Origin: Paenacidovorax caeni
GTDB taxonomy: Bacteria > Cyanobacteriota > Cyanobacteriia > PCC-6307 > Cyanobiaceae
Length of the DNA stretch: 64,000 nucleotides
Direction: 5' to 3'
Assembly: GCA_943371385.1 (NCBI GenBank)
Contig: CALRUP020000005.1
Coordinates: 1,365 to 65,364, forward strand
Shown: piece by piece, positions 2-39,496 of the stretch
Layout of the letters: every line of letters begins with the position of its first letter
Position numbering within the stretch: the first letter of the stretch is position 1
Position numbers and translations under genes: made by a program
The notes under the pieces: generated by a model
What the model was told of the DNA's origin: nothing
What the model saw: only the letters and a program-made list of their open reading frames with translations
Database searches by the model: none

Positions 2-1078
<1,077 letters not shown>

Positions 1079-22923: not shown

Positions 22924-23052
22924 GGACCGCTTGCGCCTGGTCACGCGTCACCACAGTGTGTCCGAAGTCGCAGGCCAAGGCGGCCAATGTCACCAAAAGC
23001 CTTCACGGTTAAGGCTCCTAGGCTGCCTTCGGCCTGCCTCCTGCCCAGCGCA

Positions 23053-23562
23053 ATGAGCTCAAATCCAACCCTGCGCTGGATCACGGCGCTGCTGCTGTTG
23101 CTGGCCGCCGGTTTCTCGATCTTGGTGCCATTCGTCTCGGCGACGGCGCTGACGATCGCCATCGGCGGGGTGGCGATCGCGGCCGGGGTGGCCCAGCTGC
23201 TGCGGCTCACCGGTGAAGCGGAGCTCAACGCCAGGATTTTCCGCGGACTCTCCGGTCTCTTTTATGGGGCCACCGGCGCCTGGATCCTGATCCACCCGCT
23301 CGACAGCGAGGTGAGCCTGACCCTGCTGGCCGGCCTGCTGCTGGTGTTCGAGGGGGTGATGGAGCTGGCGGGCGCCGCCGCCGGGGCCGGAGCGGCCCGG
23401 GGGCTGGTGATCGTCGATGGGGTGGTGACGGCCTTGCTGGGCGGGCTGCTGGTGGCCGAGTGGCCAAGTGACAGCCTCTGGGCGATCGGCACCCTGTTCG
23501 GGGTGGCCCTGTTTTTCTCAGCGATCAATCTGCTCACGGCACCCTCTGCTCCCGCCGCCTGA
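23053..23562 (+). CDS. HdeD/DUF308 membrane protein
   Basis: Six short TM segments ending in WPSDSLWAIGTLFG. Confidence 0.75.
   Translation: MSSNPTLRWITALLLLLAAGFSILVPFVSATALTIAIGGVAIAAGVAQLLRLTGEAELNARIFRGLSGLFYGATGAWILIHPLDSEVSLTLLAGLLLVFEGVMELAGAAAGAGAARGLVIVDGVVTALLGGLLVAEWPSDSLWAIGTLFGVALFFSAINLLTAPSAPAA
23395..23540 (+). repeat. Direct repeat copy 1 (3' end of hdeD; 146 bp, colinear with 26088-26233)
   Basis: Manual alignment without indels; both copies encode ARGLV..DGVVTA.LGGLLVAEWPSDSL.AIGTLFGVALFFSA.NLLTA. Confidence 0.9.
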
Positions 23563-23625
23563 TCCGGCGGACCAGAGGCCCGAGCAAGGCCCAGATCGCC
23601 ATCGGGAACCGCGGTCCCGGAAACC

Positions 23626-23847
23626 TCAGGACTGACAGTTCTTGCCCCAGGTCTGGGTGCAGATGCCGTCGTCGTTGCAGGCCACCGCCTTGATCGGTCG
23701 ATCAAAGCGCTCGGCAAAGGCCTGCTGCACGATCGCCGAGGGGGCCTCGCCCTTGAACACCTTGGTGGCTTTGCAGCTGGCCTGGGCCAGGGCCGCCGGA
23801 GAGGCCAACGGAATCGCCAGCAGGGGCAGGATCAGCAAAGAACGCAC
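23626..23847 (-). CDS. Small secreted four-Cys peptide
   Basis: Signal peptide ending ALA-QA, and a mature part of about 50 aa with 4 Cys. GTG start. Confidence 0.6.
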   Translation of the reverse strand: MRSLLILPLLAIPLASPAALAQASCKATKVFKGEAPSAIVQQAFAERFDRPIKAVACNDDGICTQTWGKNCQS

Positions 23848-23989
23848 GGAACTCTGAAGCGCTTGGCGGCAAGCCTACCGAGGGCTCTCGGCCCCTGATC
23901 TACCCAGTTGCGAGCCGATGGGGCTGCTCCACAGGCTGCTGGTCAGCTGGGGCGGGCCGATTCCTCTCTGGTGCGTCTGCGTTGTCCTT

Positions 23990-25579: not shown

Positions 25580-26039
25580 TCAGTGGTATCCATCGCTCGT
25601 GGAGAGTATTGGCTAAGTCTGGCTCCAGTAAGCTAAGTATGGCACGGTTTGCCCCAAGGTTTTTGTCTCAGAGGGTGCTTGAATCTGGCCTTGCATCAAG
25701 GGCGGCGACAACGGTTGCCGCCCTTGATGGCTGAGGAGTGAACCGCGTTCGGCTCAAAGGCCCTGGGCCAAGGAGAAGCGCGAAGCGGCCTTGGGGGCAC
25801 AGGTCAAGCCATCACTCGGGAGCGGTCGATCTGGGCGCCAGTGCCTGGATCGGCGGCCTGGGGCTGACATGAAGCCTGAATTGCCAAGCCTGCCCCCAGG
25901 CGGAGGACCGAAGGAGTGGACATATGGAAGGCGCGTGGGCAGGACCGCCGAACCAAAGCAGCGACAGGGCCACAACCAGCTGATCACAGGGTGAAGCTGT
26001 CGTCTAGTGCAAAAGGCCGATGCACCGGACTGCCTCGGC

Positions 26040-26240
26040 GGAGCCGTGATCGCAGCAGTGGCCGGAGCAACGGCCGGCAGCGGCCCAGCCCGGGGCCTGG
26101 TGCTCTCCGATGGGGTGGTGACGGCAATTCTTGGCGGGCTGCTGGTGGCCGAGTGGCCCAGTGACAGCCTCATGGCGATCGGCACCCTGTTCGGGGTTGC
26201 CCTCTTCTTCTCCGCCCTCAACCTGCTCACGGCGACCTGA
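26040..26240 (+). pseudogene. 5'-truncated hdeD remnant (direct repeat copy 2)
   Basis: Encodes only the last two TM segments of HdeD, with no matching 5' half. Confidence 0.75.
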
Positions 26241-26292
26241 CTGCCAATCCAGGCGAATCGGGCTAGGAAAGGGAGGCAGCCGTCAGCCCGTC

Positions 26293-26499
26293 ATGACCTT
26301 CGGCGACATCTTCCGGATCATCGTTGCCTTCATCCTTCCTCCCTTGGCCGTGGCCACCCAGGTGGGATTCACCGGGGCCTTCTGGCTGAACCTGGTGTTC
26401 TGGCTGCTCAGCTTCGGGGCCTTCGGGCTGCCGCTGATGGCGGTGATGTGGCCCGTGGCCGTGGTGCATGCCCTGTTCATCATCGTGACCCGGAAATAG
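26293..26499 (+). CDS. YqaE/Pmp3-family small membrane protein
   Basis: AFILPPLAV...FWLN...WP.A..HAL. Confidence 0.8.
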   Translation: MTFGDIFRIIVAFILPPLAVATQVGFTGAFWLNLVFWLLSFGAFGLPLMAVMWPVAVVHALFIIVTRK

Positions 26500-26521
26500 G
26501 GTCTGAATGTGGCCCTGTCTT

Positions 26522-26541
26522 GGGCTGGGCTGGGCTGGGCT
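26522..26541 (+). repeat. (GGGCT)4 simple repeat upstream of tpsB
   Basis: Four exact pentamers that also fit G3N2G3N2G3N2G3. Confidence 0.85.
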
Positions 26542-26619
26542 TATCAGCAATTGGAAAAGAAACCACCGTCTATATTACCCAATATGATAATTTCTCGTAC
26601 TGATTAACTACCTATTTCG

Positions 26620-28362
26620 TTGCCATCAACTCGGACCAGAATAGGTGCTTGCCTGATCGTGGCCATCGGCTGCACGTCACAGCACGCCTGGGCCCAGTCC
26701 CTGCCCTCGGGGGGGATCCAGCGTTTCGAGCGCGACCAGCGCCTGCGGGATGCGCTTGATGACCAGAACCGGCGCCTGCTGGAGCAGCGCAACAAGCCGG
26801 TGGTTCCCGAATCCCTGCCCCAGGGCAAGGAACCAAAACTGGAGACCGCGCCTGACTTCCTCTACGGCAGCGTGCGCCTCGAAGGCGTGTCGGTGGAGTG
26901 GAAGGGCCAACTCGAGGGCCTGGCGGCGCCCTATCTGAACCGTCCCGTGAGCCTGCGGGATCTGGAAACCCTGCGCAGCGCCATCCGCGACGCCTACCGA
27001 ACCCGCAACCTGCTCGGCCTGGTGCGGATCGATCCCAGCGGCCCCAAGGGGGGAGTGCTTGTGATCACGGTGACCGAAGCGCGCATGGGGGAGGTGAAGA
27101 TCGATTCAAGCGTCCGCCATCACCTCAATGACGGCATCGCCAAGGCCACCGTGCGGGCCTCGGTTCCGCAGGGCAGCCTGCTGCGGCTCGACAAGCTCAC
27201 CTCCGCCCTGCTCAAGCTCAACGATCTGGCCGGCGTACGGGTGCGCTCCACGCTCCAGCCCGGGGCTACCGCAGGCACCACCGATGTGCTGCTGACCCTG
27301 AGGGACACCGACCGCACCAGCGGCGAGCTGAACATCAGCAACGAGATCAACCGCTTCCTCGGCTCCACCGACATCGATCTCACCCTCACCGGATCCAACC
27401 TCCTCGGCCGAGGTGAGCGGATCTCCCTGGAGGGGGCCTGGTGGGGCAACAACGTCAACACCGGCAACCTGGTGGGCTCCCTCAATGCCACCCTGCCCGT
27501 GACCCCCGATGGGGCCCAGCTCAACTTCTACGGCAACTACAACGCCTACCGCCTGCTCGATGAGCTGTATGACGCCGACATCAACGGCAGCACCGGCAAC
27601 CTGCGGCTGGGGTTCCAGCAGCCCCTGTGGCGCCGGCCGAAGGAGTCGCTCTGGGGCAGCGTGAGTGGCGAGGTCAACAGTTACATCGACCGGATTCAGA
27701 CCACGGAGATCCGCAACCGGGACAGCCAGGTGGCCCGCCTCTCGCTGTTGGGCCAGAAGCAGGATGCGATCCTCGGCACAGGTCTGAACACGGCCCTGTT
27801 CCAGTACAGCCTCGGCAATCTGGATCGCTCCGGTAATGCCAATGATCTGCTCCTCGATTCCCTGACGGCCCAGACCGACGGGGTCTTCAACAAGGTGGGG
27901 CTGGTGGTGAGTCGCTATCAGGTTTTCTCCGACCGCTGGCACGCAAAGGTGTTCCTCCAGGCCCAGAAGGCCTTCAACAATCTCGACGGTGCCGAGAAGC
28001 TCTCTCTCGGCTATCCGAACGGTGTGCGGGCCTACCCCCCGGGTGAAGCCCCAGGAGACAGCGGCTTCAGCGGGCAGTTCGATCTGATCTACCGGGCCAC
28101 TCCGGAGCTTTCTCTGGTGGCGTTCATCGATGGGGGGTACATCTGGCGCTGGACCAATCCCTTTCAAGGCTCCCTTGAGCCCAATGGCTATGGACTGGCC
28201 GGTGCGGGTTTCGGGGTGGATCTCGGCACCCCGGGGGAATGGCTCGCCTCCGTCAAGGTGGCTTTTCCCATGGGGAACAATCCCGGCAGTCTCGATGACA
28301 CCGATGCGGACGGCTTCAACAAGGGCGTGAGGGTCTGGGGTTCTCTGCGGTGGTGGTTCTGA
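26620..28362 (+). CDS. TpsB outer-membrane transporter (ShlB/FhaC/HecB family)
   Basis: Signal peptide, POTRA-like region, barrel loop-6 motif GVRAY, and C-terminal WWF. Confidence 0.88.
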   Translation: MPSTRTRIGACLIVAIGCTSQHAWAQSLPSGGIQRFERDQRLRDALDDQNRRLLEQRNKPVVPESLPQGKEPKLETAPDFLYGSVRLEGVSVEWKGQLEGLAAPYLNRPVSLRDLETLRSAIRDAYRTRNLLGLVRIDPSGPKGGVLVITVTEARMGEVKIDSSVRHHLNDGIAKATVRASVPQGSLLRLDKLTSALLKLNDLAGVRVRSTLQPGATAGTTDVLLTLRDTDRTSGELNISNEINRFLGSTDIDLTLTGSNLLGRGERISLEGAWWGNNVNTGNLVGSLNATLPVTPDGAQLNFYGNYNAYRLLDELYDADINGSTGNLRLGFQQPLWRRPKESLWGSVSGEVNSYIDRIQTTEIRNRDSQVARLSLLGQKQDAILGTGLNTALFQYSLGNLDRSGNANDLLLDSLTAQTDGVFNKVGLVVSRYQVFSDRWHAKVFLQAQKAFNNLDGAEKLSLGYPNGVRAYPPGEAPGDSGFSGQFDLIYRATPELSLVAFIDGGYIWRWTNPFQGSLEPNGYGLAGAGFGVDLGTPGEWLASVKVAFPMGNNPGSLDDTDADGFNKGVRVWGSLRWWF

Positions 28363-31271
28363 TGAAACAGTCAATGAACAGCGGATCGATCAGCCTGCGC
28401 CTGCTGCTGTGGCGTGCCTCCCACGCCGGGATGGCGGCCCTCGCCCTGGCCAGCGGGATTCCCTTGAGTCCTGCCCAGGCGTTGCCGACCGGGAACCAGC
28501 AGGTGGGCAGCGGCACCCACACGGCTACCCCTTCGGGCAACACCCTCACCGTCACCACGCCGGGCCGGGCGGTGATCAGCTGGGGCAGCTTCAACATCGG
28601 ACGGGGCGAAGCGGTCAACTTCCAGAACGGTGGCGCCGTTCTCAACTACGTACGCAGCGGTGGCGGGGCCTCTCGCCTCGATGGCGCCCTCAATGCCATC
28701 AATCCCCTGGTGTTGATCAACAACCAGGGCATCACGGTGGGCTCGACGGCCGTGATCTCCGTGCCCAGCATCCTGCTCACCAGTGGCACGCTCACCTCCG
28801 ACGGGGTGGAGAAGTTCCTCACTGGTGCGGCCTATGGCAACGGCCTGAATGCGCCGTTGATCAGCATCGTCATGGCCGATGGCGATGGGCCGGTTCAGGT
28901 GGACGGCAGCATCCGCTCCACCAATGGGGGCGGCATCGGCCTTGTGGCCCCATCCGTCACCATCGGCCCATCGGCCACCATCGTCACCCGCGGCTTCCGC
29001 ACCCCATCCACCGGCACCGATGGGGTCAACACCACCGTGAACGGTGTCGTAGCCGAAGGTTCACTCTGGATCGGCACCACCGGATTGCCAGCCAGCCCCT
29101 TCACGGCGCCTCCGGGGTTGCCCACCGGCTTCGGCTTCGTCCAGATCAGCGGCCAACCCTCGCCCCAGAGCGCGTCGCTGGCGTTGCAAGCCACCTACGA
29201 CCTCGAGCGTTTCGTGGTCAACACCAAGGGAGCCACGGTCGGGCAGTTCGATGGGCTGTTCTTCTCCCCCAGCTTCAGAGCTGCAGATTTCTACGTCTAT
29301 GACGGCATCGCCGCGATCGAAGAGGGCCACCGCGAAAGCACCAATGGAGGTTCCCTCAGGCGTCGCCTCACCCATACCGACGCCCAGGGCAACCTCGTCG
29401 CCGAGGAGAGGGACGAAGCCAGCATCCTTGGCCTGACGTTGCCGCCAGGGGCTGTATTACTGAACGCCGACGGTGTCCGCGTCGATCCAGCCTCCGGGCA
29501 GATCCTGACCGCAACGCTCACGGTTCAGCCGGGCCCCGATGCGGTGGCCAATCAAGATTTTATTAACCAGTTCGGCAGCGGGGCCCTGAAGGTCACGATC
29601 GACGGTGGCGCCTCGTCGGTGGTGGGCAGCAACGGGGCGAAGGCGGCTTATAACCCGCAGACGGGATTGATCACCTGGACCAAGACAATTCCGGGAACGC
29701 CCACGACCCAGATGGTGGCGATTCCTGGCGGATCGTTCACGATCAATCAGGGGCAGACGAATCCTGGTTTCACCAGGCCACCGGAAGCTGGAATTAGCCA
29801 GCAATATGTCAGCAAGGAGGGTTACTACTATCACGGCAATAACGGTCAGTACGCAGGAACCAGCCCTTGCCCTGGCTGCCGCTATGTGAATCCCGTCACC
29901 GGTCAGGTGACCTACTGGCGGGGGCACTTCACCACCGACAGCAACGGCCGCCCGCAGTTCAGCACCGCTGGCAATGTGCCTCCCACCCATGTGCTCTACG
30001 TGGTCGGTGGCCGGACCTACGTGACCGATGCGGCCAATTTCAATCCCCAGACCACACCGAAGAATCCACCCACCCAGGTGGTGACGCCGCCGATCTACCA
30101 GCAGGTCACCACGCCGGGCACTCCCACCGTGGTGCAGCTCCAGCAGGCGCTTCCCCTGACGGGTCAGGCCACGGTGCCCCAGGGTTCCGCCACCTCCAAC
30201 TGGCAGCGGCCGACGCCGCCACCCTTGGTGATCCAGGCTCCCGTGCCGCAGCCCACGACAGCACCCACTCCAGGCCAGGTGCCAACCATGGCGCCCGCTC
30301 TAGTGCCGCAGCCCACCACAGCTCCCACCCTTCAGCCACCTACGGCCGCGGTTCCCACCATGGCGCCGATCAAGGTGCCGCAGCCCACCACAGCTCCCAC
30401 CCTTCAGCCGCCTACGGCCGCGGTTCCCACCATGGCGCCGATCAAGGTGCCGCAGCCCACCACCGCACCCAAGCCCGGTCAGGTTCCGACGATGGCGCCT
30501 GGACTAGTACCACAACCCACCACGGCTCCCAAGCCGCTGCTAACTCCGACGATGGCTCCGGGGCTGTTGCCGCAACCGACGGCAGCGCCGAAGCCAACTC
30601 AGGGCCCGTCAGTAACACCGACCTTGGCGCCGACCTTTACGCCAACTCAGGGCCCGACGTCGGCACCGCAACCCACGCCGTCACCAACCCAGGCCCCCGT
30701 GCGGCAGCCGCTGCTGACGCCCACACTGGCACCACAGAAGGTGCCGCAACCGACGGCTGCGCCGAAGCCAACTCAGGGCCCGTCAGTGACACCGACCTTG
30801 GCCCCGACCTTGACGCCAACTCAGGGCCCGACGTCGGCACCGCAACCCACGCCGTCACCAACCCAGGCCCCCCTACGGCAGCCGCTGCTGACGCCCACAC
30901 TGGCACCGCAGAAGGTGCCGCAACCGACGGCTGCGCCGAAGCCGGTTCCTGGTCCCGTCCTCAGGCCGCTTCCCGTGGAGGAGCGGGTGCCCACCTCTGG
31001 AATGCGGCCTGTTCCACGCACCGATTCCTTCAGTTACCAGATCCCAAGGGGGCTCATCGAACAACGCATCCCTGGTGCCATCCCAGAGCAGAGCCGCGCA
31101 CGCCTCTTCGACGGACGTGCCCTGCCACCTGGAGTCGAATTCGATCCCTTCAGCCAGACCTTCGAGATCAAGAGCTACGGGAAAATCTCTCTACCGCTCG
31201 ACGTGCTCCTGCTCGTTCCGACCCGCAGTGGCACCACCGGCTCGTTCACCCTGACGATCGGCAAACCCTGA
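28362..31271 (+). CDS. TpsA exoprotein: FHA-type secretion domain, Pro/Thr mucin-like domain and C-terminal cadherin/He_PIG-like domain
   Basis: AQA-LPTG cleavage site, AVISWGSFNIG, V.FQN, S.LDG.L and LINNQGI (NPNG-like). ATG overlaps the tpsB TGA. Confidence 0.85.
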   Translation: MKQSMNSGSISLRLLLWRASHAGMAALALASGIPLSPAQALPTGNQQVGSGTHTATPSGNTLTVTTPGRAVISWGSFNIGRGEAVNFQNGGAVLNYVRSGGGASRLDGALNAINPLVLINNQGITVGSTAVISVPSILLTSGTLTSDGVEKFLTGAAYGNGLNAPLISIVMADGDGPVQVDGSIRSTNGGGIGLVAPSVTIGPSATIVTRGFRTPSTGTDGVNTTVNGVVAEGSLWIGTTGLPASPFTAPPGLPTGFGFVQISGQPSPQSASLALQATYDLERFVVNTKGATVGQFDGLFFSPSFRAADFYVYDGIAAIEEGHRESTNGGSLRRRLTHTDAQGNLVAEERDEASILGLTLPPGAVLLNADGVRVDPASGQILTATLTVQPGPDAVANQDFINQFGSGALKVTIDGGASSVVGSNGAKAAYNPQTGLITWTKTIPGTPTTQMVAIPGGSFTINQGQTNPGFTRPPEAGISQQYVSKEGYYYHGNNGQYAGTSPCPGCRYVNPVTGQVTYWRGHFTTDSNGRPQFSTAGNVPPTHVLYVVGGRTYVTDAANFNPQTTPKNPPTQVVTPPIYQQVTTPGTPTVVQLQQALPLTGQATVPQGSATSNWQRPTPPPLVIQAPVPQPTTAPTPGQVPTMAPALVPQPTTAPTLQPPTAAVPTMAPIKVPQPTTAPTLQPPTAAVPTMAPIKVPQPTTAPKPGQVPTMAPGLVPQPTTAPKPLLTPTMAPGLLPQPTAAPKPTQGPSVTPTLAPTFTPTQGPTSAPQPTPSPTQAPVRQPLLTPTLAPQKVPQPTAAPKPTQGPSVTPTLAPTLTPTQGPTSAPQPTPSPTQAPLRQPLLTPTLAPQKVPQPTAAPKPVPGPVLRPLPVEERVPTSGMRPVPRTDSFSYQIPRGLIEQRIPGAIPEQSRARLFDGRALPPGVEFDPFSQTFEIKSYGKISLPLDVLLLVPTRSGTTGSFTLTIGKP
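30303..30446 (+). repeat. 72-bp tandem repeat x2 (VPQPTTAPTLQPPTAAVPTMAPIK)
   Basis: Units start at 30303 and 30375; a partial third unit starts at 30447. Confidence 0.92.
30570..30944 (+). repeat. 174-bp tandem repeat x2 plus partial (58 aa, PQPTAAPKPTQGP...)
   Basis: Units start at 30570, 30744 and 30918. Confidence 0.92.
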
Positions 31272-31283
31272 ATGGGCTGAGCC

Positions 31284-32900
31284 ATGCCGAGCCTTGCACC
31301 AGGACTCAGCCTGATCATCGGCAGCCGCAACGAGGGTGCCTATCTACGGCGCACTGTTGAGGGAGCCTTTGCGCTCACCCCACCCGAGGGCGGTCTTGAA
31401 TGTTCGCTCTACGACGACGCCTCAAGCGATGGCAGCGCGGCGTTCTGCTACGAACCACCCTGGCGCCAACTCCGCGACCAGGGGGCCCTTCGCTTGCAAC
31501 GCGGTGCTGTCCGTGTCGGGGTCTCCCGGGGCCGACGCCAGGGTGCGGCCGGTTGCCGCGCAGAGGTGCTGGTGTTCCTTGATGCCCATCTGGAGTTTCC
31601 CCAGAGCGATCTCTGGTTGAAGGTTCAGGAGAAGTTCCGTGACCCGGCCTGCGATCTTCTGGGGATCGACTGCTTCGACAGTCGCAATGGTGCCACCACA
31701 GCTGGAACGATCTACAGCAGCAAGCGGCTGGATCACCTCAATCCGGCCTGGGTGCAGCAGCAAGCTGAGCCACTGGTGGGGATAGAGGTGCCCTTCGTGA
31801 ATGGCGGCTTCTTTGCCATTCGCCGTCGGGTCTACGAACGACTGGAGGGTTTTCCGGATTTCCTGGAGGACTGGGGCCATGAGGACCGCTTCCTCTCCAT
31901 GCTTGCCGGCATCTGTGGGTACCACTGCCGGATCGATCAACGGCTACGGGTCGGCCATCTCTACAAGGAGGTGTTCGATGAACGGGAGGGCCTTGCCTTG
32001 CCCGAAGCCTTCTCGGACCCGCTGCCTTCTGATGGCGTTGCCCTACCGGAGGTCGTCTACCGCCATGCCGATGCGGCAGCGGCGGGCGTGTCGACCCTGT
32101 TGATGAACAGCCTGCGGTGTGGCGCTGTGCTGTACAGCGCCGAGATCGCTGAGCGCATGAACGAGCAGCTGCGCTTCGATTTCGGCTCTGAGATGGTCGA
32201 AAGGGCCCTTGTGCTGCTTGAGCAGGAACGTCCCCAGCTGGAGGCCCTGATGCTTCGTCTTGGGCTCACCCCCGAACGGCGTGACCAGCAGATGGGGGAT
32301 TTCTTTCAGCGTTTCAGGCCCGTTCTGCCGATGCTGGAGGAGGCGGATCTGCAGGCCACGGCCACGATGGCGGATATTTCTCAGGCACTCGATCGATTGC
32401 GGCAGTTGCCCCTAACGCTGCCTTCCCTCGATCAGCCGGACGCTGACCATTACCGAACGGCCCGCCTCTACCGAGAAGCCCTCTATGGCTACCAGCTCCA
32501 GCGGCATGAGGAGGCCAGCCGTCTGCTGGCCGAGTTGCTGACGATAGATCCGGACTACCTGCCGGCCATCTGCCTGCTGTGTGTGAACCTGCGGGCCCTG
32601 GGGCGTCTGGCGGGCGAGCGATTCTGGCTGCAGCGGGGTGCCGAGATCATCGAGCGCCACCGCCCCCAGGTGGGTCCAGGCCCGGTCGGGGCGTTCCACC
32701 CCGCCAGCCTCAACCCCTACCTTCGCCATCTCTATTGGCCTGAGGCGGATCGGATGATCTGGGCAGCCCTGGCGGATCTAGAGGAGCGGGCTGGCCACAC
32801 ATCTGCGGCCGTGGGATGGCTGCTCAAGCTGCTCGATCAGTCGCCCGACGACCCTTCTGTGCGGGAGCAGTTGCTGCGGTTGGTGCAACCTCAGCCGTGA
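31284..32900 (+). CDS. Cytoplasmic GT-A glycosyltransferase with ppGalNAc-T-like motifs and C-terminal TPR-like helices
   Basis: SLII..RNE, FLDAHLE (DxH), PFVNGGFFAI.R, WGHED..LS...CG and RVGHLYK. No signal peptide or TM. 12 bp after tpsA. Confidence 0.8.
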   Translation: MPSLAPGLSLIIGSRNEGAYLRRTVEGAFALTPPEGGLECSLYDDASSDGSAAFCYEPPWRQLRDQGALRLQRGAVRVGVSRGRRQGAAGCRAEVLVFLDAHLEFPQSDLWLKVQEKFRDPACDLLGIDCFDSRNGATTAGTIYSSKRLDHLNPAWVQQQAEPLVGIEVPFVNGGFFAIRRRVYERLEGFPDFLEDWGHEDRFLSMLAGICGYHCRIDQRLRVGHLYKEVFDEREGLALPEAFSDPLPSDGVALPEVVYRHADAAAAGVSTLLMNSLRCGAVLYSAEIAERMNEQLRFDFGSEMVERALVLLEQERPQLEALMLRLGLTPERRDQQMGDFFQRFRPVLPMLEEADLQATATMADISQALDRLRQLPLTLPSLDQPDADHYRTARLYREALYGYQLQRHEEASRLLAELLTIDPDYLPAICLLCVNLRALGRLAGERFWLQRGAEIIERHRPQVGPGPVGAFHPASLNPYLRHLYWPEADRMIWAALADLEERAGHTSAAVGWLLKLLDQSPDDPSVREQLLRLVQPQP

Positions 32901-32915
32901 CGGTGCTGCCAGCGC

Positions 32916-32933
32916 CCATGCCTTCGGGCATGG
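32916..32933 (+). terminator. Stable hairpin closing the TPS operon
   Basis: CCATGCC-TTCG-GGCATGG (C(UUCG)G tetraloop) 15 bp after the GT stop. No U-tract. Confidence 0.45.
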
Positions 32934-33046
32934 AGCAAGTGGTTCAGTGTTCGCTGTCGTCTGACAGCCATCTAACGAGGCCGCGCAAACCTGCTTCGGG
33001 GTTACCTGCCGCCGAATCAAGGTTGACTCCCCCCCTCATCACCCGT

Positions 33047-33343
33047 ATGAAAGCAAGCCTCAGCTTCGCCCTGATCACCGCTTAAAGCATGGTGGTGGCC
33101 ACCTCTCAAAGCCGGGCAGCTGAAGTTTCCAGCAATGCCACATCGGCCTGCATGGTGGCGGTGAACAAGCAGTACGGCGGCAATGTGCGCCACCTCAAGG
33201 TGGTGCGCAGCGAGTTCTCCCAGGCCAACTCCGAAGTGATCGTCAAGGCGATCGGTGTGCGTGGCGGCTCAAGCAATGAAAAATGGCGCTGCCTGGTCTC
33301 GAACAGCGGCAAGGTGCAGGACCTGAGCGTGGCCTGGAACTGA
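33047..33343 (+). pseudogene. Small secreted two-Cys protein with a premature stop in the signal peptide
   Basis: MKASLSFALITA*SMVVATSQSRA-AEVSS... is a single frame, with TAA at 33083-33085. Confidence 0.6.
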
Positions 33344-33549
33344 ACCCAACCGGCGGGCCCTTCACGATCAGGGCCCGTCGGTCGCATCTGGATGAGGGTG
33401 ATACCGCTGGGAGCCCTAAGCCAGCGCCATCACCGTGCTGGTGTGCGGGACCATTCCTCCTTCCCAGAGGTCCAGCGGGAGGATCTGGTGGAGGACCAAC
33501 GGCGCTGGGTGGAGAGCGAGGAAAGTGAAGCCGTTATGCCTGAGCCAGC

Positions 33550-33843
33550 ATGGAACTGCTCTTCTGGTTGTTCGTCGGGAAGCCGCCAGCCATCCTGATG
33601 GTGGCCGTCGTTTTTCTGACGGGCTTTCTGGCCTTGCGGTTTCTGTGGCCCGGCCAGGCTCGGCATCCTGGGGCGTTGCTGATCGGGGCCATCGCCTGGG
33701 GGAGCTATGCCGGCTGGGAATGGCTGGTGCAGTTCAGGACCCCGGAGGCGAACATCCGCGTTGATCTCCTGGTGATCTGGCCCGTGTTGGCGATCCCGTC
33801 GACCTGGCAATCCTGCGTACGTTTCGATAGACCCCGTGGCTGA
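33550..33843 (+). CDS. Small membrane protein, TPEANIRVD family copy A (possibly frameshifted near the 3' end)
   Basis: Shares W..AGWE.L...TPEANIRVD.L.I.P with 34462-34731. Confidence 0.6.
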   Translation: MELLFWLFVGKPPAILMVAVVFLTGFLALRFLWPGQARHPGALLIGAIAWGSYAGWEWLVQFRTPEANIRVDLLVIWPVLAIPSTWQSCVRFDRPRG

Positions 33844-33893
33844 TGGCTGCAGGCGGAGGGAACAGCTGCGGGTCAGACCTGGTCGCTAATCCC

Positions 33894-33959
33894 CTAGAGC
33901 GCGTTGCTCACGGCATCGCCATCCTTGGTGGAGGCCCTGATCTTGTCATCCAGGCTCGT
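33894..33959 (-). pseudogene. Internally deleted csbD remnant
   Basis: ACG-SLDDKIRASTKD-GDAVSNAL*: the two ends of the csbD at 35363-35587 fused, with ACG where the intact copy has ATG. Confidence 0.65.
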
Positions 33960-34021
33960 GGTGGCGTGACAGGAGGCTGACTGGACCCTACCCGAAACGA
34001 GGTGATTGACCCACCAACGAT

Positions 34022-34267
34022 TCAGGCCCGTTTGAGCACCCTGAGCACCACCAGCAGGATCACGGCACCGAGGGTCGCCACCACGATGCTGCCCAGCAGG
34101 CCGCCTCCCACTGCTCCACCGAGACCGCCGAAGAGAAGCCCACCGAGCAGGGCGCCGATGATGCCCACCACCAGATCGCCGACGAGCCCGAAGCCTCCCC
34201 CTTTGACGAGAACCCCGGCGAGCCAGCCTGCAATCACACCCACGAGCAGAAACCAGAGAACGTTCAT
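34022..34267 (-). CDS. GlsB/YeaQ/YmgE (transglycosylase-associated) membrane protein
   Basis: GVIAGWLAG...G.G...D.VVGIIGA.LGG...ATLGAVILL. Confidence 0.88.
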   Translation of the reverse strand: MNVLWFLLVGVIAGWLAGVLVKGGGFGLVGDLVVGIIGALLGGLLFGGLGGAVGGGLLGSIVVATLGAVILLVVLRVLKRA

Positions 34268-34461
34268 GACGGGGGAACTGGTGTGAAGGGAGGTCGATCA
34301 GAGGTTACGTAAAGCAGCAGGGCAGGTTGTCCAGCGACAACGAGCATTCGAAATGCAGCCGCCTGAAGGCGCGTTCATTCGTTCACTTCCGTTCAGCGGC
34401 ACCCGAGGAGCGCGTGGACGCGCGGAAGTAGAACATCGTCACATGCAAGACGGACGCGCTG

Positions 34462-34731
34462 ATGGCTCCTCTGGCGCTGCTGATCGGTCGTCCGCTGCTC
34501 ATCCTGATGGTGGGTCTGCTGTGGGGCCTGACGGCGCTGGCGCTTCCCCGCAGCCGCCAAGCCCTCGTGGCCAACACAGTGGCCTGGCTGGTCTTCGCTG
34601 GATGGGAAGGGCTGATCCTGGCGTTCACGCCGGAAGCCAACATCCGCGTGGACATCCTGCTGATCGCACCGCTGCTCAGCGGGCTGGGGCTGTGGGGCCT
34701 CGTTTCCATCCTGCTGCGCCTTAAGCGATGA
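34462..34731 (+). CDS. Small membrane protein, TPEANIRVD family copy B
   Basis: Three hydrophobic segments; paralogue of 33550-33843. Confidence 0.65.
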   Translation: MAPLALLIGRPLLILMVGLLWGLTALALPRSRQALVANTVAWLVFAGWEGLILAFTPEANIRVDILLIAPLLSGLGLWGLVSILLRLKR

Positions 34732-34810
34732 AGTGGCTTGTGTTCATCCCCCCTGCTCAGCGGGAAGGCCGCCGGCCAAGGTCACTCCAGCCACAGAACA
34801 TCGTCACTCC

Positions 34811-35242
34811 ATGGCTTCGATCCGAAAAGCCCTCGTCCTTTCAGGATGCTTATTGATCCTGGTCAGCGGCTTCGGCGTAGGGCCAGCCTTGGCGCAGCGC
34901 TCCTCAACGGTGCAGTTCAAGCCCGGCAACTACGGCACCATGGTGAGTGGCACAATCACCGGTCGTGAATACATCGACTACAAGCTCAGCGCCAAGAAAG
35001 GGCAGAAGATGTTTGCTGAGCTTGCCGTGAGCGGCACCAATGGCAATGGATCGGCTTTCTTCAACATCCTGCCTCCCGGCAGCAAGGGCGAGGCGATCTA
35101 CGTCGGCCAAACCGACAACGACAAATCCGCACTCGTGAAACTGCCCGCCAACGGCGTCTACACCATCCGGGTGTATCTGATGGGAAATGACAAGGACGCC
35201 GGCAAGACCGTGGGCTTCAACCTCGATCTCTCGATCCAGTGA
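34811..35242 (+). CDS. Secreted PliG/PPC-like protein 1
   Basis: Signal peptide; VQFKPG...SGTITG..Y..Y...AKKGQK...LPANGVY.IRV resembles recalled E. coli PliG. Confidence 0.6.
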   Translation: MASIRKALVLSGCLLILVSGFGVGPALAQRSSTVQFKPGNYGTMVSGTITGREYIDYKLSAKKGQKMFAELAVSGTNGNGSAFFNILPPGSKGEAIYVGQTDNDKSALVKLPANGVYTIRVYLMGNDKDAGKTVGFNLDLSIQ

Positions 35243-35362
35243 CAGCGGCCGCCCCTGCTCCCATGCGCTGAAGAGAGCCTGAATCAAGGGCCATGGCTAC
35301 GGTTCACTCAGAATGGACGGGGCGAGATCCCTGCCCGTTTTCCATCCCTTTGCTGGACGATC

Positions 35363-35587
35363 ATGAGCCTCGAGGACAAGATCAGGGCCTCGGCCAAAGA
35401 TGTCGAAGGCAAGCTCCAGGCCGCTGCCGGTGAGCTCACCGATGACGATCGCCTCAAAGCGGAGGGAGAAGCCAAGCAGCTGCAGGCGGACCTGATCGAT
35501 GCCGCCGGCACGCTCAAGGACAAAGCCCAGCAGGCCGCCAGCGCGGTGAGTGATGCCCTCGACAGCCTCACCGGCAAGCAATCCTGA
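35363..35587 (+). CDS. CsbD-family stress protein
   Basis: K.EGKLQ.AAGELTDDD.L.AEG.AKQ. Confidence 0.85.
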   Translation: MSLEDKIRASAKDVEGKLQAAAGELTDDDRLKAEGEAKQLQADLIDAAGTLKDKAQQAASAVSDALDSLTGKQS

Positions 35588-35792
35588 CCAGCAGGTTCGG
35601 CGACCGGGCTGTGGTCCCGCTGGATCAAGCCCCAAAGACTGAACGACCTGCAGCCTTGCCTGCATCGTTTCGATCCTGCCGGATGGATCTGATCCCTTGG
35701 GGAGCTGGCTGATTCATTAGCCGGTACTGAAGGAAGGCTGCCGATCCCCGTATCGGCGGCCAGGGCGGCCAACGGCCTGAGCGTTCAGGCGA

Positions 35793-36533
35793 TCACTTGC
35801 ACTTGCTTGGTTCGGTGAAGGTGATCGACTGGTAGCGCCCATCGGTGGTACGCACCGCCACGCAGCTGTTGGTGCGCGGCTGCTTCCAGTAGGTGAAGGC
35901 ACTGTCACCGATCTGGTCGCCACCCCGGTAGGTGTACCCCTTGCTGGTCAACTCGCCCTCGGCACCGGCGGCCTTCGCCCCCACCAGCGACTGCAGGGAG
36001 CTCACCGGGGCCCCCACGCGGGCGGTTTCGCTGCTGCCGCCCTTGTTCGATCCGGCGATCAGGCCGCCGAGCAGCGCTCCCACCGCCGCCCCGAGCAGGG
36101 AACCGGTGGTGGCCTTCTGGGGCTGGTCCTCGAACTGAATGTCAGGGTTCTGGACGTTGTCGAGTTTCACGGAAAGGCGCCTCTCTTCCCCGTCGTTCCA
36201 GAGGAAAAGATCGTGGTCGGGCTTGGCGTTGTGGCGCACGTTCACGATCCCGCGATAGGTCTGCAGTTGCAGGGCCTGAGGACTGGGGCCAGAGAAGTTG
36301 AAGTCGGTGCCGTCATCGAGCTTCACCACAAAGGCATCGGTGCCGCCAGCCGCCTTGTGCTTGAAGGTGCAATGGCCGTTGAAGGACACATACCCCCCAC
36401 TCTCCAGCTTGCAGCGGCCCCCGGCTCGCACCAGCGTCTCGGCGGATGCGAGCTGTTGGAACGGAGCGGCCGCCGTGAGCAGCAGGAGGCCAGGTCCGAG
36501 CAGGGCACCGGCGCGTTGGAGGCAGTTCTTCAT
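35793..36533 (-). CDS. Secreted two-domain protein with a glycine-zipper segment
   Basis: Signal peptide, Cys pair in the N-domain, GSLLGAAVGALLGG zipper, and C-domain L.SLVGA.A.GAE.EL..KGY...YW....C. Confidence 0.65.
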   Translation of the reverse strand: MKNCLQRAGALLGPGLLLLTAAAPFQQLASAETLVRAGGRCKLESGGYVSFNGHCTFKHKAAGGTDAFVVKLDDGTDFNFSGPSPQALQLQTYRGIVNVRHNAKPDHDLFLWNDGEERRLSVKLDNVQNPDIQFEDQPQKATTGSLLGAAVGALLGGLIAGSNKGGSSETARVGAPVSSLQSLVGAKAAGAEGELTSKGYTYRGGDQIGDSAFTYWKQPRTNSCVAVRTTDGRYQSITFTEPSKCK

Positions 36534-36856
36534 CGGGAGGTAGGAAGAAGGATGTCCCAGTGCGATTCGACTGGAAGGCCCTGAGGGTATCGGCTGCCTG
36601 CCCCCTCTATCGAGCCTTGTGGCTGAACGCTGAAGTCCCTGACCACGATCGGCACCCGGCTGGTGGGGACGTCGGAGACCAACGCATGACCTTGCTGGAT
36701 GCGGGCAATGAAAGGTAGCCGTAGGCATAGGGCGGGTCCTCCCCGTTGCGCGGCACCAGCAGCCAGGGCGGCGGTTCCCAATACCGACGGCTTTCTCCGC
36801 ATCGTGCTGCGGACGGGGCCCTCCTTGGACGCACAATGAAGGTTTCCCCCCCACCC

Positions 36857-37219
36857 ATGGGTAATCGCTCCTCCTCCTGGGCGCTGATCCTCACCGGCCT
36901 TGTGATACTGGCAGGACAGGCCGCACCTGCCAGAGCCCAGCCTCAGGTCCAGGGCAGCCCGATTCGCTCCCTGCTCGAGAACGGAGCAGGACGACTGTTG
37001 GGGATCTATGACGGGATCCGCCACGTGGAACTGCCCCTCGCCAATGGCAAGGCCGTGATCGGTCTGAACTGTGAGCGTCAGACCTGGACCCTGTTCAGGA
37101 TCGAGCGCAACGGGCGGGAGGTGTACAGCTTCGGCAACGATCCCAAGTGGGGCTACCAACCGGCGGGCCCCATTGCCACCTCACGCCTATGCACGGATGC
37201 GGTTCGTGTGGCTGAGTGA
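36857..37219 (+). CDS. Secreted hypothetical protein (2 Cys)
   Basis: Signal peptide ending ARA-Q; plausible codon usage. Confidence 0.55.
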   Translation: MGNRSSSWALILTGLVILAGQAAPARAQPQVQGSPIRSLLENGAGRLLGIYDGIRHVELPLANGKAVIGLNCERQTWTLFRIERNGREVYSFGNDPKWGYQPAGPIATSRLCTDAVRVAE

Positions 37220-37342
37220 GGCCAGGCAAGCCTTGAGGTCCAGCCTCCGGCCGCATTCATTTTTCGGGAGTCAGCGGGAGCCCGTCGGCAAAGGTTGGGT
37301 TGCCCGACAGGACGGCCAAACCCGCCAGGGCAAGCGGCGGCC

Positions 37343-37777
37343 GTGATCAACAGTGACGTTCGGGGCAGCAGGTCCCGAGGGGAAGCAAGGATTGCCGCGA
37401 TCTGCGCGGGCGGTCTGTTTCTGTTCCTGTCGGCTGTCGCGCTGGCAGGAGCTGACCGACCACCACCCCCCCGGTTCGGGGGGCTGGTGGTCGCGTTCGG
37501 TGTGATCTCCGGGGTGGCGTATCGCCGCTTGAGGAAGCGGCTTTCCCATCGCCGCCTGACGAGTGCCGATCAGGCGTTCGGCGCTGCCTGCGAGGGGTGG
37601 GTCGCAGGTCTTGGCTTCGCGCTGTTCGTATTGGTTGCGGGGGGCGGGGAGCCGGGGGTGATGCCATCCCTACACGCTCGGCTGATCTGGTTCGGCGTGA
37701 TGGGGGCCCTGGGAGCCTGCGCAGCCCTCGTGCTCTGGTGGATCGCGGCACGCCTGCAGCGACGCCTTCCGCCCTGA
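37343..37777 (+). CDS. Hypothetical four-TM membrane protein
   Basis: Four hydrophobic segments. Start uncertain. Confidence 0.5.
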   Translation: MINSDVRGSRSRGEARIAAICAGGLFLFLSAVALAGADRPPPPRFGGLVVAFGVISGVAYRRLRKRLSHRRLTSADQAFGAACEGWVAGLGFALFVLVAGGGEPGVMPSLHARLIWFGVMGALGACAALVLWWIAARLQRRLPP

Positions 37778-38206
37778 TCAGCGCCGTTCCAACGTGAGCG
37801 TGAAGACCGCACGGCCCCCGACCCGTGCGGCGTCCCCCTCCATGAGCACCGAGGCGCGCCAGCGCCCGGTCTCGCTCAGCAGCATCTGCAGGCCGTCCGC
37901 GCCAGGGCGGGCCCCATCCAGCACCATCGCCCCGGAGGGCGCCTCGAGGGCCAGCACAAGGGTCCGGGTCGGGTCGTCCAGGCGCACAAGCAGCCGTTCT
38001 CCCTTGCGGGCGGCGAAGGCGAAGACCGGGTGGTCGTAGGCGAGCACCCGGTCTTCCACGCGCACGGTCGTGCCCGGGGCAAGGGTGAGCACCCGGGGTT
38101 CCCGATCCGGTGGCGGCGGGATGGCACGAGAGGGCACTCCCGTCATCGAAAGGAGCAGGGCGGACAGACCAACCAAAGCCCGATTCACTGCTGAATCCCT
38201 CACCAA
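37778..38206 (-). CDS. Secreted PliG/PPC-like protein 2
   Basis: L.PG....V...VLAYD...F.F.ARKGE.L.V...L..TG.W...VLM..DAAR. Confidence 0.55.
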   Translation of the reverse strand: MVRDSAVNRALVGLSALLLSMTGVPSRAIPPPPDREPRVLTLAPGTTVRVEDRVLAYDHPVFAFAARKGERLLVRLDDPTRTLVLALEAPSGAMVLDGARPGADGLQMLLSETGRWRASVLMEGDAARVGGRAVFTLTLERR

Positions 38207-38217
38207 GGGCTGAGGCC

Positions 38218-38973
38218 TCAGCCCCCCACCACCAGGGCGTCGACAATTTCATAACGCTCGAAGTTCTCCCCAAGCAGCAGCACCGACACATCGCCGCGCC
38301 GCTGCACCGAGAGCTTCTCTGGCTGATCAGAAGCGACGGCCTTGCCCTTCACGAACAGGAACTGCCGTTTCTGACCCTCGGGGTTCATGACCACCACCGT
38401 GGCGCTGTTGTTGGCCCGGCGGATCACCGAAGCCTTGCAGCGGGCGGCCTTACCGCTGCTGCTTCCAGACACACAGGGCACCTCCGCTGAGGCGTGATAG
38501 CGAGTGCCGGGGATCAGGGCATCTCGGGCAGCGGGCACGGGGGCGATGGGAACACCGCCGATCCAGACCTTCAGGCTGTAGGTGCTGGTTTCGTTGCGGC
38601 GCGCCGCCGGGCGCATCAGGTACACACGCACCCTGACGTCACCGTCGCTGGGCAGGAGCCCCCGGAAGCGGTTGCCTGAGCTGCTGCCGATGAACAGGGC
38701 GTTGGCGGTTCCGGCCGCCAGCACGTTGAAGTAGTTCTGCGGGTTGGAGCCCTTGAGCTCCACCGTCAGGGTCTGGCCGGCACCGGCCCGCAGTTTGTAG
38801 TCGACGGTCTGGTCACCTTTGAGCTGGCCCTTGAGCAGGGTGGAACTGGCTCCAGCAGGGAACGTGACCCTCCGGCTCTCGATCGCCACCTGGGCCAGGG
38901 CACCTCCAACCGGCGGGCTCAGGGCCACCAGGCCAGCGGCGACAACAGCACAGGCAGCCCGCATCGGAACCAT
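38218..38973 (-). CDS. Secreted PliG/PPC-like protein 3 with an extra C-terminal Cys-pair domain
   Basis: VTFPAG.SS..LKGQLKG....DY.LRA.AGQ...LPSDG...VRVYLMRPAARRN, then GT.YHA...VPC...C.A.V.R. Confidence 0.65.
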   Translation of the reverse strand: MVPMRAACAVVAAGLVALSPPVGGALAQVAIESRRVTFPAGASSTLLKGQLKGDQTVDYKLRAGAGQTLTVELKGSNPQNYFNVLAAGTANALFIGSSSGNRFRGLLPSDGDVRVRVYLMRPAARRNETSTYSLKVWIGGVPIAPVPAARDALIPGTRYHASAEVPCVSGSSSGKAARCKASVIRRANNSATVVVMNPEGQKRQFLFVKGKAVASDQPEKLSVQRRGDVSVLLLGENFERYEIVDALVVGG

Positions 38974-39100
38974 CAGGTAGAGGGTCAGATCAACCTAGTC
39001 CGACCTACCGGTACGACAAAACAGGGCTGTCAATTGGAGAAACGTGGTGGCATCGAAACCCGGTACTCTCTCGGAGTTGAAGGAAGGCACGATCACCGCC

Positions 39101-39496
39101 ATGAAACCCAGCTCCGCTGCCGTCTTCGCCCTCAGCCTCCTGACCCTGGCCCTCCTCAAGGACCTGAGTCAGCCGGCACTGGCGGCACCACCCTGGCTGA
39201 AGTGCACTTTCTCGGAACCCACCCCCACCGATCCCACCAAGCTGGCGAGCTGGCACATGTTGAGTCAGGAAGCCAGGAAGAGCGTTGAGTTCGTCAACAC
39301 CCGTGGTGAACGAAGAACCCTCAGTGCCCTCTATACCCCCAGCCAGATTCTCTTCATCTATCCCAAACAGATCAGCCGGGATGTCAGCTATGAGATCGAA
39401 TTTCGCCTCAATCGCAAGACGCTCGCCATCACCAAGCAGGTGAGCAACGAACCGGGCAGCTCCAGCGGAACCTGCGCCTTCGCACCGGCCCCTTGA
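39101..39496 (+). CDS. Secreted hypothetical protein (2 Cys)
   Basis: RBS AAGGAAGG, signal peptide ending ALA-A, and INR.T/LNRKT-like beta motif. Confidence 0.55.
   Translation: MKPSSAAVFALSLLTLALLKDLSQPALAAPPWLKCTFSEPTPTDPTKLASWHMLSQEARKSVEFVNTRGERRTLSALYTPSQILFIYPKQISRDVSYEIEFRLNRKTLAITKQVSNEPGSSSGTCAFAPAP

Follow-up and report, generated by a model that had tools for sequence, protein, structure and literature searches.

A candidate mucin-like glycoprotein system in a freshwater picocyanobacterium: a two-partner secretion operon pairs a ppGalNAc-transferase-like enzyme with a Pro/Thr-repeat exoprotein

The 64,000-nucleotide stretch of DNA analysed here (the window; contig CALRUP020000005.1, positions 1,365 to 65,364, assembly GCA_943371385.1) comes, judging from its closest relatives, from a freshwater picocyanobacterium of the Cyanobium/Synechococcus group and carries three co-oriented genes for an outer-membrane transporter (tpsB), a secreted exoprotein with a long Pro/Thr-rich repeat tract (tpsA) and a glycosyltransferase (GT). 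We think it probable, judging from sequence comparisons, that these genes form a horizontally mobile unit making a surface or secreted glycoprotein, in which the threonines of the repeats would be glycosylated before export. The proposal draws on observations of gene order, domain identities, conserved catalytic residues, fold similarity and the association of the GT with Thr-rich neighbours in other genomes. The term mucin-type should be understood here as describing an architecture and not alpha-linked N-acetylgalactosamine (GalNAc) chemistry.

Results

A two-partner secretion pair followed by a glycosyltransferase

An earlier interpretation made from the window alone (the sequence-only reading) had described a compact operon with an overlap, a short gap and a closing hairpin, and all of these are present (Table 1). 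The tpsB stop codon and the tpsA ATG overlap as TGATG at 28360-28364, the GT gene begins 12 nt 3' of the tpsA stop codon, and a hairpin with a UUCG loop follows the GT gene. The tpsB and tpsA genes are adjacent and in the same orientation, which is the arrangement used to recognise two-partner secretion (TPS) pairs, and 6 other loci keep this order.

TpsB has a signal peptide ending in AWA-Q and matches the Pfam families ShlB (57.2 bits, cut-off 22.7, 2.4e-15) and POTRA_2 (31.1 bits, cut-off 24, 2.1e-07); its identity is 65-81% across 6 orthologous loci. The secretion domain of TpsA is recognised by Pfam TPS (43.6 bits, cut-off 33.5) and by TIGR01901 (44.2 bits, cut-off 29.1). We therefore propose export of TpsA through TpsB as a candidate two-partner secretion (type Vb) system. 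In public records tpsA starts at the ATG at 28362, which gives 969 amino acids, and an alternative GTG lies at 28350.

An AlphaFold2 (AF2) model of TpsA was built from 12 orthologues. Foldseek ranks the secretion domains of EtpA, HxuA and HMW1 first for it (E ~5e-07), with those of HpmA and FHA next. The passenger region downstream of the secretion domain is 41-83% identical among orthologues and has no Pfam match. A segment of about 85 columns of the model matches the N-terminal domain of alpha-dystroglycan (Foldseek probability 1.0, E 0.075, root-mean-square deviation 3.2 A). Since the Foldseek output carries no query coordinates, we infer from the size and beta fold of this segment that it is the TpsA C-terminal domain. 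Alpha-dystroglycan itself bears a mucin-like domain.

The Pro/Thr tract is the open segment richest in Pro and Thr of the whole 2.83 Mb genome, in which only three segments reach at least 45% Pro plus Thr (P+T) per 100 amino acids. The repeats that the sequence-only reading had pointed out are confirmed by Tandem Repeats Finder (TRF), and the tract, which contains 91 Pro, 61 Thr and 9 Ser, spans ~270-330 amino acids, somewhat more than the 240 or so given there. In TRF the region 30278-30943 resolves into tandem units with periods of 72 nt (2.7 copies, 92% match) and 174 nt (2.2 copies, 96% match), and a 60-nt period is present too. Because the repeat units are 92-96% identical at the DNA level, the tract has expanded recently.

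The same genome (G000) contains two more TPS-domain open reading frames (ORFs), at C7:6392-7045 (-) and C35:4585-5262 (-), with open frames of 2326 and 1811 amino acids. Among the three TPS-domain ORFs solely the Pro/Thr-rich one adjoins the GT gene. The other two are not Pro/Thr-rich and serve as internal negative controls for the pairing of Pro/Thr tract and GT.

The enzyme resembles ppGalNAc-transferases in sequence and fold

The GT (538 amino acids) matches Pfam Glycos_transf_2 (PF00535) at 50.9 bits (cut-off 23.3), with further matches to tetratricopeptide repeat (TPR) families (TPR_14 at 3.7e-07, TPR_2 and TPR_19 weakly) and a weak Glyco_transf_7C match at the GGFFAI...WGHED segment. NCBIfam offered nothing informative for the GT (MftF at 25 bits, cut-off 280). 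The GT has neither a signal peptide nor a membrane segment, and its first Rossmann strand runs from residue 8; sequence and model together indicate that it is a soluble cytoplasmic enzyme. The AF2 model has a mean pLDDT (predicted local distance difference test) of 90.7 over 538 amino acids and a pTM (predicted template modelling score) of 0.85, and it consists of an N-terminal alpha/beta domain to about residue 225, a lower-confidence linker and then 13 helices (pLDDT ~80-98).

The DxH, GGFFAI, WGxE and RVGH motifs listed in the sequence-only reading are all found in the protein, as DAH (100-102), GGFFAI (174-179), WGHE (197-200, within WGHEDRF) and RVGH (222-225). Across 17 members of the family, the most distant at 41% identity, there is no variation at D100, H102, W197, G198, E200, D201 or H225. 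In a phmmer search of the PDB the best matches are the human polypeptide GalNAc-transferases (ppGalNAc-T) T10 (1e-14), T2 (3.6e-13) and T1 (3e-09), while the first bacterial or archaeal GT2 enzyme trails at ~1e-05. The alignment to GalNAc-T2 and T10 pairs DAH100-102 with DSH, GGFFAI with GGLF, WGHE with WGGE and RVGH225 with RVGH. Foldseek agrees: the best 50 of 223 significant PDB matches all belong to GT27 (E ~2e-13 over ~360 columns). No GT41 match to the GT was obtained in Pfam, NCBIfam or the PDB, and the fold of the model is GT-A.

The nearest solved relatives of the GT by sequence and by fold are thus ppGalNAc-transferases, with the Mn-binding DxH...H residues aligned, and on sequence and model the label ppGalNAc-T-like given earlier to the enzyme holds for sequence, fold and metal-binding residues; Mn binding by DxH...H of the GT itself is a predicted role. 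The ED pair, as in WGHED, is the catalytic base of inverting GT2/GT7 enzymes. Because the motif is WGHED rather than WGGEN, sugar and anomer cannot be read from the sequence, and neither GalNAc nor an alpha linkage is implied. The motif is ambiguous, being compatible with retaining GT27-like as well as inverting GT2/GT7-like chemistry.

The presence of a large (~270 amino acids) and well conserved TPR domain raises the alternative that the GT modifies TpsA at residues other than the repeat threonines, such as Ser, Asn or others of the folded passenger, or that it serves mainly as a TPR chaperone or export-licensing factor by which the long disordered exoprotein is kept stable before it leaves the cytoplasm. 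HMW1C, for comparison, also stabilises HMW1, and the tight linkage to tpsA would suit any TpsA-directed role. On the other hand, the invariance of the catalytic residues down to 41% identity indicates that catalysis is under selection, and the partner proteins found beside type I secretion genes and in the outgroup (below) lack the folded domains of TpsA and have only Thr-rich repeats in common. We regard this alternative as unlikely.

The Thr-rich neighbour recurs across secretion systems

The GT family comprises 41 clusters, all picocyanobacterial. Its distribution is patchy: of 401 genomes in the taxonomic family 15 have the gene, spread over 9 of the 64 genera, and each has a single copy. 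Among the carriers are the culturable strains Synechococcus sp. BO 8801, Cyanobium gracile UHCC 0281 and Cyanobium sp. ATX 6F1. We studied 17 loci (the window, L001-L014, L023 and L031). In nine of them (the window, L001-L006, L009 and L023) tpsA is directly followed by the GT gene, and tpsB lies upstream in the six of these that have enough flank. A Pro/Thr tract of at least 45% P+T is present in eight of the nine TPS-type loci, the exception being L006, which holds only ~600 nt upstream of the GT. The TpsA C-terminal region (residues ~868-973, tblastn) is kept in all TPS-type loci, and it is visible even in the short stretches L003 and L006. In two public assemblies (L001:4208-7985 and L002:4319-8053) the tpsA repeat tract is broken, by a frame change in L001 and by a run of N in L002. 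These breaks are probably assembly problems of tandem repeats, so the annotated lengths of these two TpsA proteins are unreliable.

A different arrangement is found in L010 and L014, where the GT gene closes an ABC-ABC-HlyD type I secretion operon (Pfam) and overlaps the HlyD gene. This operon is divergent from the gene of a protein that lacks a signal peptide and is 788 to at least 908 amino acids long, with 39-42% Pro, Thr and Ser (P+T+S), repeats such as PTQPPSTGTPTDAPPAITQPPQTGA and a common N-terminal LHxGDRExY motif. The start of a like Pro/Thr protein lies beside the GT at the contig end of L011, and L031 has one of at least 2899 amino acids, divergent from the GT. The two members of this second Pro/Thr-repeat family that were scanned (L010 and L014) have no Pfam match. 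The L014 genome, a Vulcanococcus, also encodes a 1137-amino-acid autotransporter (L014:12235-15648 (-); Pfam Autotransporter beta-domain, 6.5e-40), 2.6 kb downstream of the type I secretion-linked GT.

The stretch of L013 stops within the transporter genes, and L012 is too short and was left out of the counts. The sequence-only reading had set the co-occurrence of GT homologues with Thr/Pro-rich passengers beforehand as its refutation test. This test, like the others made here, came out in favour of that reading, with such a protein beside the GT in 14 of the 16 informative cyanobacterial loci (L003 and L006 counted). A strict count of loci in which the Pro/Thr tract is actually seen gives 12 of 16, since L006 and L013 were included only for the genes next to the GT. 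Pro/Thr segments of this kind have a background frequency of about one per Mb, that is, three in the 2.83 Mb of the window's own genome. In a tree of the GT sequences, enzymes linked to type I secretion branch off at the base, and those linked to TPS make up one derived clade with a Shimodaira-Hasegawa-like approximate likelihood ratio (SH-aLRT) support of 100, within which the orphan copies described below are nested. By this topology the enzyme switched secretion partner once and the Pro/Thr-repeat partner was retained.

The association extends beyond cyanobacteria. Enzymes of the sister clade, which have WGPED as third motif, are encoded in metagenome genomes with 37-44% GC, and one of these genomes is tied to Candidatus Gracilibacteria via a neighbouring gene; these low-GC hosts are possibly candidate-phylum bacteria. 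The outgroup GT adjoins a large Thr-repeat protein in all six loci with usable flanks (Table 1). The L033 GT carries a methyltransferase domain too, and in some of the giant neighbours there is a PP2C domain or membrane segments. That the pairing returns in different phyla and with different export routes is our strongest argument for the Thr-rich repeats as candidate acceptor.

The residues around the threonines were compared among the candidate substrates. Pro is enriched at position -1 (44-71%) and +3 (35-86%) of Thr relative to 23-31% overall in 8 of 10 candidate substrates, and in the TpsA tract it reaches 62% at -1 and 52% at +3 against 27% overall. The Thr:Ser ratio in the candidate substrates is 2.4- to 50-fold. 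Peptides considered as possible GT acceptors of this Pro/Thr type include VPQPTTAPKP and PTLAPTLTPTQGP. It is established that ppGalNAc-transferases prefer Pro at -1 and +3.

The enzyme belongs to a large prokaryotic DxH GT-A radiation

An exhaustive search of 1.84 billion representative proteins with the catalytic domain gave 1445 relatives with E <= 0.001, of which 200 have E <= 1e-10. Mucin-type initiation had been taken in the sequence-only reading to be a matter of eukaryotic enzymes; a confinement of the DxH core to eukaryotes does not survive this search, since at least 1445 representative clusters share the DxH/WGxE/H core and nearly all of them look prokaryotic. Among the best 145 relatives, 144 have DxH and 143 the distal His, and the third motif is mostly WGxED, with the eukaryotic WGGEN in only four. 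The best matches outside the GT family score 110-125 bits, compared with 57 bits to GalNAc-T10, and are GT2-plus-TPR, GT2-TPR-methyltransferase or double-GT2 proteins.

In a tree of the 145 DxH catalytic domains the cyanobacterial GT falls in a 20-member clade (99% local support) of TPR-bearing WGPED proteins of 390-835 amino acids. The WGGEN rows lie elsewhere in the tree, and one of them has a membrane anchor and a ricin-like tail. The sequences thus indicate that the GT is a member of a large prokaryotic DxH GT-A radiation, of which GT27 is the sole structurally characterised branch. We also considered acquisition of a eukaryote-derived GT27 by transfer and rejected it, because the enzyme sits in a large clade of prokaryotic sequences, in which its family does not have the WGGEN rows as sister group.

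One DxH-clade enzyme of the double-GT2 zinc-ribbon kind (L046:1890-4097 (+)) is clustered with zinc-ribbon membrane proteins and with a kinase-like protein that has long P/T/S/A-rich regions. This cluster is a possible further protein-glycosylation module.

Discussion

Proposed mechanism

Based on these results, we propose the following model, in which the glycosylation itself, the repeat threonines as acceptor, the timing before export and the physical role of the product are our inferences. The soluble cytoplasmic GT would bind Mn2+ and a uridine diphosphate (UDP)-sugar via D100-x-H102 and H225 and put a single sugar or a very short glycan on many repeat threonines of nascent TpsA, with its TPR domain holding the extended, polyproline-like protein substrate. 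TPR domains of OGT and of Listeria GmaR have been proposed as protein-substrate binders (PMC9638930). Sec would then export the modified, still unfolded TpsA, the POTRA domains of TpsB would recognise its TPS domain, and the chain would be threaded to the cell surface, whereas in the type I secretion genomes the modified substrate would leave through the ABC/HlyD system. Small cytoplasmic glycans do pass Sec and TpsB in HMW1 (PMC3012730). No sugar-nucleotide, flippase, polymerase or second GT genes were found near the operon, and a single GT gene with no sugar-nucleotide gene nearby is what one would expect of a glycan simple enough for passage by Sec, by TpsB or by a type I secretion channel. 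At the surface, the glycosylated tract may act as a stiff, hydrated and protease-resistant stalk between the folded passenger and the C-terminal Ig-like domain.

Observations that weigh against the proposal, and other acceptors

Several observations count against the proposal. The Pro statistics at -1 and +3 are inflated by repeat copies and the L031 substrate is in a different register, so that we take the threonine context only as consistent with the preference of ppGalNAc-transferases; in the outgroup, the L048 neighbour contains no proline. In L007 and L008, loci of two genomes that belong to one genus, the GT has no Pro/Thr neighbour, and no Pro/Thr-rich TpsA or homologue of the type I secretion-type substrates was found in these genomes, whose sole TPS proteins are of a TPS-CHAT kind. 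The similarity to GT27 partly reflects the lack of solved structures from the bacterial clade. Nor is the DxH GT-A core diagnostic of protein acceptors, since a non-TPR member (L047) lies among sulfotransferase and methyltransferase genes, in what looks like a glycan-synthesis cluster; the association with Thr repeats consequently belongs to the TPR-bearing clade and not to the DxH core itself. Finally, to our knowledge dense glycosylation ahead of passage through Sec and TpsB has a precedent only for mono- and di-hexoses on HMW1.

The TPS-CHAT proteins of the orphan-GT genomes (L043:2617-5733 (+) and L044:3540-6803 (-)) have an N-terminal TPS domain and a C-terminus that is CHAT-like by eye, which makes them an unusual two-partner secretion passenger.

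The orphan copies and the L047 cluster lend some weight to the alternative that the GT glycosylates a non-protein acceptor, such as an exopolysaccharide, a lipid-linked sugar or a small molecule, with the Pro/Thr tract as an unmodified spacer and the GT as a hitchhiker in surface islands. Pfam GT2 is dominated by polysaccharide and lipid enzymes, and the operon does lie in a variable island. Yet the GT has no membrane segment and is not accompanied by the flippase, polymerase or other GT genes just mentioned, its nearest characterised structures are all peptide-acting, and adjacency to Thr repeats recurs with two export systems and in a very distant outgroup (14 of 16 and 6 of 6 loci), against a background of about one segment per Mb. 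A non-protein acceptor therefore seems to us less likely still than a role on other residues of TpsA.

It is also conceivable that the Pro/Thr tract is glycosylated by another, periplasmic or general, O-glycosylation system and that the GT acts in trans on targets such as pilins or S-layer proteins. Pro/Thr linkers are O-glycosylated by unrelated enzymes elsewhere, as in the actinobacterial PMT-type systems, and the orphan GTs of L007 and L008 must have a target in trans or none. This explanation fits poorly with the translational coupling or 12-nt spacing with tpsA and with the HlyD-gene overlap in type I loci, which favour a dedicated partner, as well as with a distribution in which the single-copy GT, present in few genomes of the family, tracks the exoproteins. 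We consider it the least likely of the explanations discussed here, and very improbable.

Relation to known glycosylation systems

Glycosylation of the repeat threonines by the GT would resemble eukaryotic GT27 initiation in several respects: a GT-A fold, aligned DxH, RVGH His, GGxF and WGxE motifs, a C-terminal non-catalytic targeting domain, and acceptors that are dense Thr/Pro-rich tandem repeats, like the candidate acceptor in TpsA. There are also differences. GT27 enzymes are type II Golgi membrane proteins with a ricin-type lectin domain, whereas the present GT is soluble and cytoplasmic with a TPR-like helical domain; their motif is WGGEN (WGGENxE), whereas WGHEDRF keeps W, G and E and replaces N by D as in the ED of GT2/GT7-type enzymes. 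Identity between the two is only ~20-24%, and the tree groups the GT with prokaryotic TPR-bearing enzymes. The protist polypeptide alpha-GlcNAc-transferases of GT60 are related to GT27 and have no ricin domain, and Gnt1, which acts on Skp1, is soluble and cytoplasmic (PMC8724618). Unlike our enzyme, GT60 members have no described TPR and act on protist mucins or on a single hydroxyproline; we set them beside the GT by description only.

The gene clusters HMW1B-HMW1A-HMW1C and EtpB-EtpA-EtpC likewise combine a TpsB, a TpsA and a cytoplasmic GT, with glycosylation before export. HMW1C and EtpC, however, are GT41 enzymes of GT-B fold that N-glycosylate Asn in NX(S/T) sequons (PMC3012730, PMC4550697), whereas here the fold is a GT-A with DxH and the candidate acceptor is a Thr/Pro tract. 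GmaR, the flagellin O-GlcNAc transferase of Listeria monocytogenes, has an N-terminal GT domain followed by TPRs that are the proposed substrate binder (PMC9638930). It is, like our enzyme, a soluble cytoplasmic GT-plus-TPR protein, and it O-glycosylates a protein that has no classical folded state during export, a likeness at the level of architecture; it differs in its extra antirepressor domain and in its substrate, flagellin, which has few sites and no mucin-like tract. The serine-rich repeat adhesins of Gram-positive bacteria, with GtfA/GtfB and the accessory Sec system, are a further established parallel, since long low-complexity repeats are densely O-glycosylated in the cytoplasm before dedicated export and form a mucin-like stalk. 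GtfA/GtfB are in contrast GT4 enzymes of GT-B fold acting on Ser-rich repeats, with another export route and in another phylum.

The principle of a dedicated protein glycosyltransferase coupled to secretion is therefore known already. We know of no GT27-like GT-A enzyme among HMW1C, EtpC, TibC, GtfA/B and GmaR, and of none among them that acts on a Pro/Thr mucin-like tract. What is new with respect to the literature searched is the enzyme family, the type of acceptor and the fact that the enzyme is paired with type I as well as two-partner secretion. The sequence-only reading knew of no description of this architecture, and that search yielded none either, only CAZy-style listings of a GT27 candidate in Bacillus (PMC3178493).

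Possible significance

We think it quite possible, if short of probable, that the TPR-fused DxH GT-A clade represents widespread and undescribed cytoplasmic protein O-glycosyltransferases that densely glycosylate the Thr-rich tandem repeats of giant secreted proteins, independently of how these are exported, as a prokaryotic counterpart of mucin-type O-glycosylation that may be kin to the ancestral stock of GT27 and GT60. If this is true, bacteria share with mucin biosynthesis the logic of an enzyme plus its acceptor, and a function could be given to an unannotated clade of GT2-plus-TPR proteins and to the giant Thr-repeat proteins that adjoin them, both in picocyanobacteria and in Gracilibacteria-like bacteria of low GC. 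The system would also offer a simple, soluble, single-enzyme route to densely O-glycosylated repeat proteins in E. coli and a concrete entry to the origin of eukaryotic mucin-type O-glycosylation. For picocyanobacterial ecology, the system would be a patchy, island-borne cell-surface glycoprotein, a kind of trait believed to influence how cells interact with their phages and grazers; anti-grazing, anti-phage and similar roles are speculation.

Genomic setting and further features

Comparison of the window with the congeneric genome G140 by blastn shows synteny at 22287-25714 (84-92% identity) and at 39173-41198 (70%), and no match between them. G140 has its own tpsBA-GT about 100 kb from the shared flanking radical-SAM gene, and its GT is 55% identical to that of the window, compared with 95% for the radical-SAM gene. 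The syntenic flanks, the unmatched interior and the divergent GT of G140 together place the operon in a variable cell-surface island that is exchanged horizontally. Such a setting fits a role in biotic interactions and does not prove one.

Table 1 Features of the operon, of its products and of related loci.
Feature	Location	Strand	Description	Basis
Variable genomic island	25715..39172	.	~13.4 kb, contains the operon	blastn vs congeneric G140
AT-rich leader	26540..26619	+	5' of tpsB	read directly from sequence, 65% GC genome
tpsB	26620..28362	+	Omp85-type outer-membrane transporter, 580 aa, TTG start	Pfam
tpsA	28362..31271	+	secreted exoprotein, 969 aa from ATG	Pfam TPS, TIGR01901
TpsA signal peptide	residues 1-40			AF2 pLDDT below 50
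TpsA TPS beta-helix	residues 45-210			AF2 pLDDT 85-93
TpsA passenger region	29172..30191, residues ~270-610	+	folded, beta-rich	AF2 pLDDT ~80-90
TpsA Pro/Thr-rich repeat tract	30204..31022, residues ~615-887	+	disordered, proposed acceptor array	pLDDT below 50 throughout
TpsA C-terminal domain	31026..31259, residues ~889-966	+	small beta domain, Ig-like (immunoglobulin-like) or dystroglycan-type cadherin-like	pLDDT 72-81
GT gene	31284..32900	+	glycosyltransferase	
GT catalytic domain	31284..32003, residues 1-240	+	GT-A; DAH100-102, WGHED197-201, H225	Pfam GT2, phmmer, Foldseek
GT C-terminal domain	32094..32900, residues ~271-538	+	all-helical, TPR-like	Pfam TPR_14, AF2
Hairpin	32916..32933	+	CCAUGCC-UUCG-GGCAUGG, 7-bp stem, UUCG loop	3' of GT stop codon
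Second Pro/Thr-repeat family	L010:1-2725	-	signal-less, N-terminal L..LxxLHxGDRExY	
Second Pro/Thr-repeat family	L014:346-2712	-	as above	
Second Pro/Thr-repeat family	L031:1-8697	-	as above	
Second Pro/Thr-repeat family	L011:8046-8784	+	as above	
L033 neighbour	L033:1404-7892	-	2162 aa, long PTGPTQPTGPT arrays, 73% P+T+S	
L049 neighbour	L049:488-5980	+	1830 aa, (PPT)n, 77% P+T	
L032 neighbour	L032:1897-6405	-	1502 aa, PP2C domain, P/T stretches	
L037 neighbour	L037:36-7850	-	2604 aa, a P/T stretch	
L034 neighbour	contig end		GPTGPTSST repeats	
L048 neighbour	L048:8150-9461	+	~40 tandem VETTAE(D/E) units, Thr-Thr, faint WXG100 matches	

The leader 5' of tpsB stands out in a window of 65% GC and is a possible promoter region; a scan of it for the sigma-70 consensus gave no site. 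The hairpin behind the GT gene has a minimum free energy of -19.8 kcal/mol in a 48-nt context (z = -1.43), with 20 of 200 shuffled sequences folding equally well. It carries no U tract and was not picked up by the terminator scan, and because its folding energy is not unusual for its composition we do not treat it as a demonstrated terminator.

An unrelated membrane glycosyltransferase of GT2/GT21 type lies outside the operon, 10 kb upstream at 15393-16511 (+) of the window, beside a GMC-oxidoreductase-like ORF. The island also contains several ORFs with signal peptides and no Pfam match (34733-35242, 35793-36854, 38218-38973).

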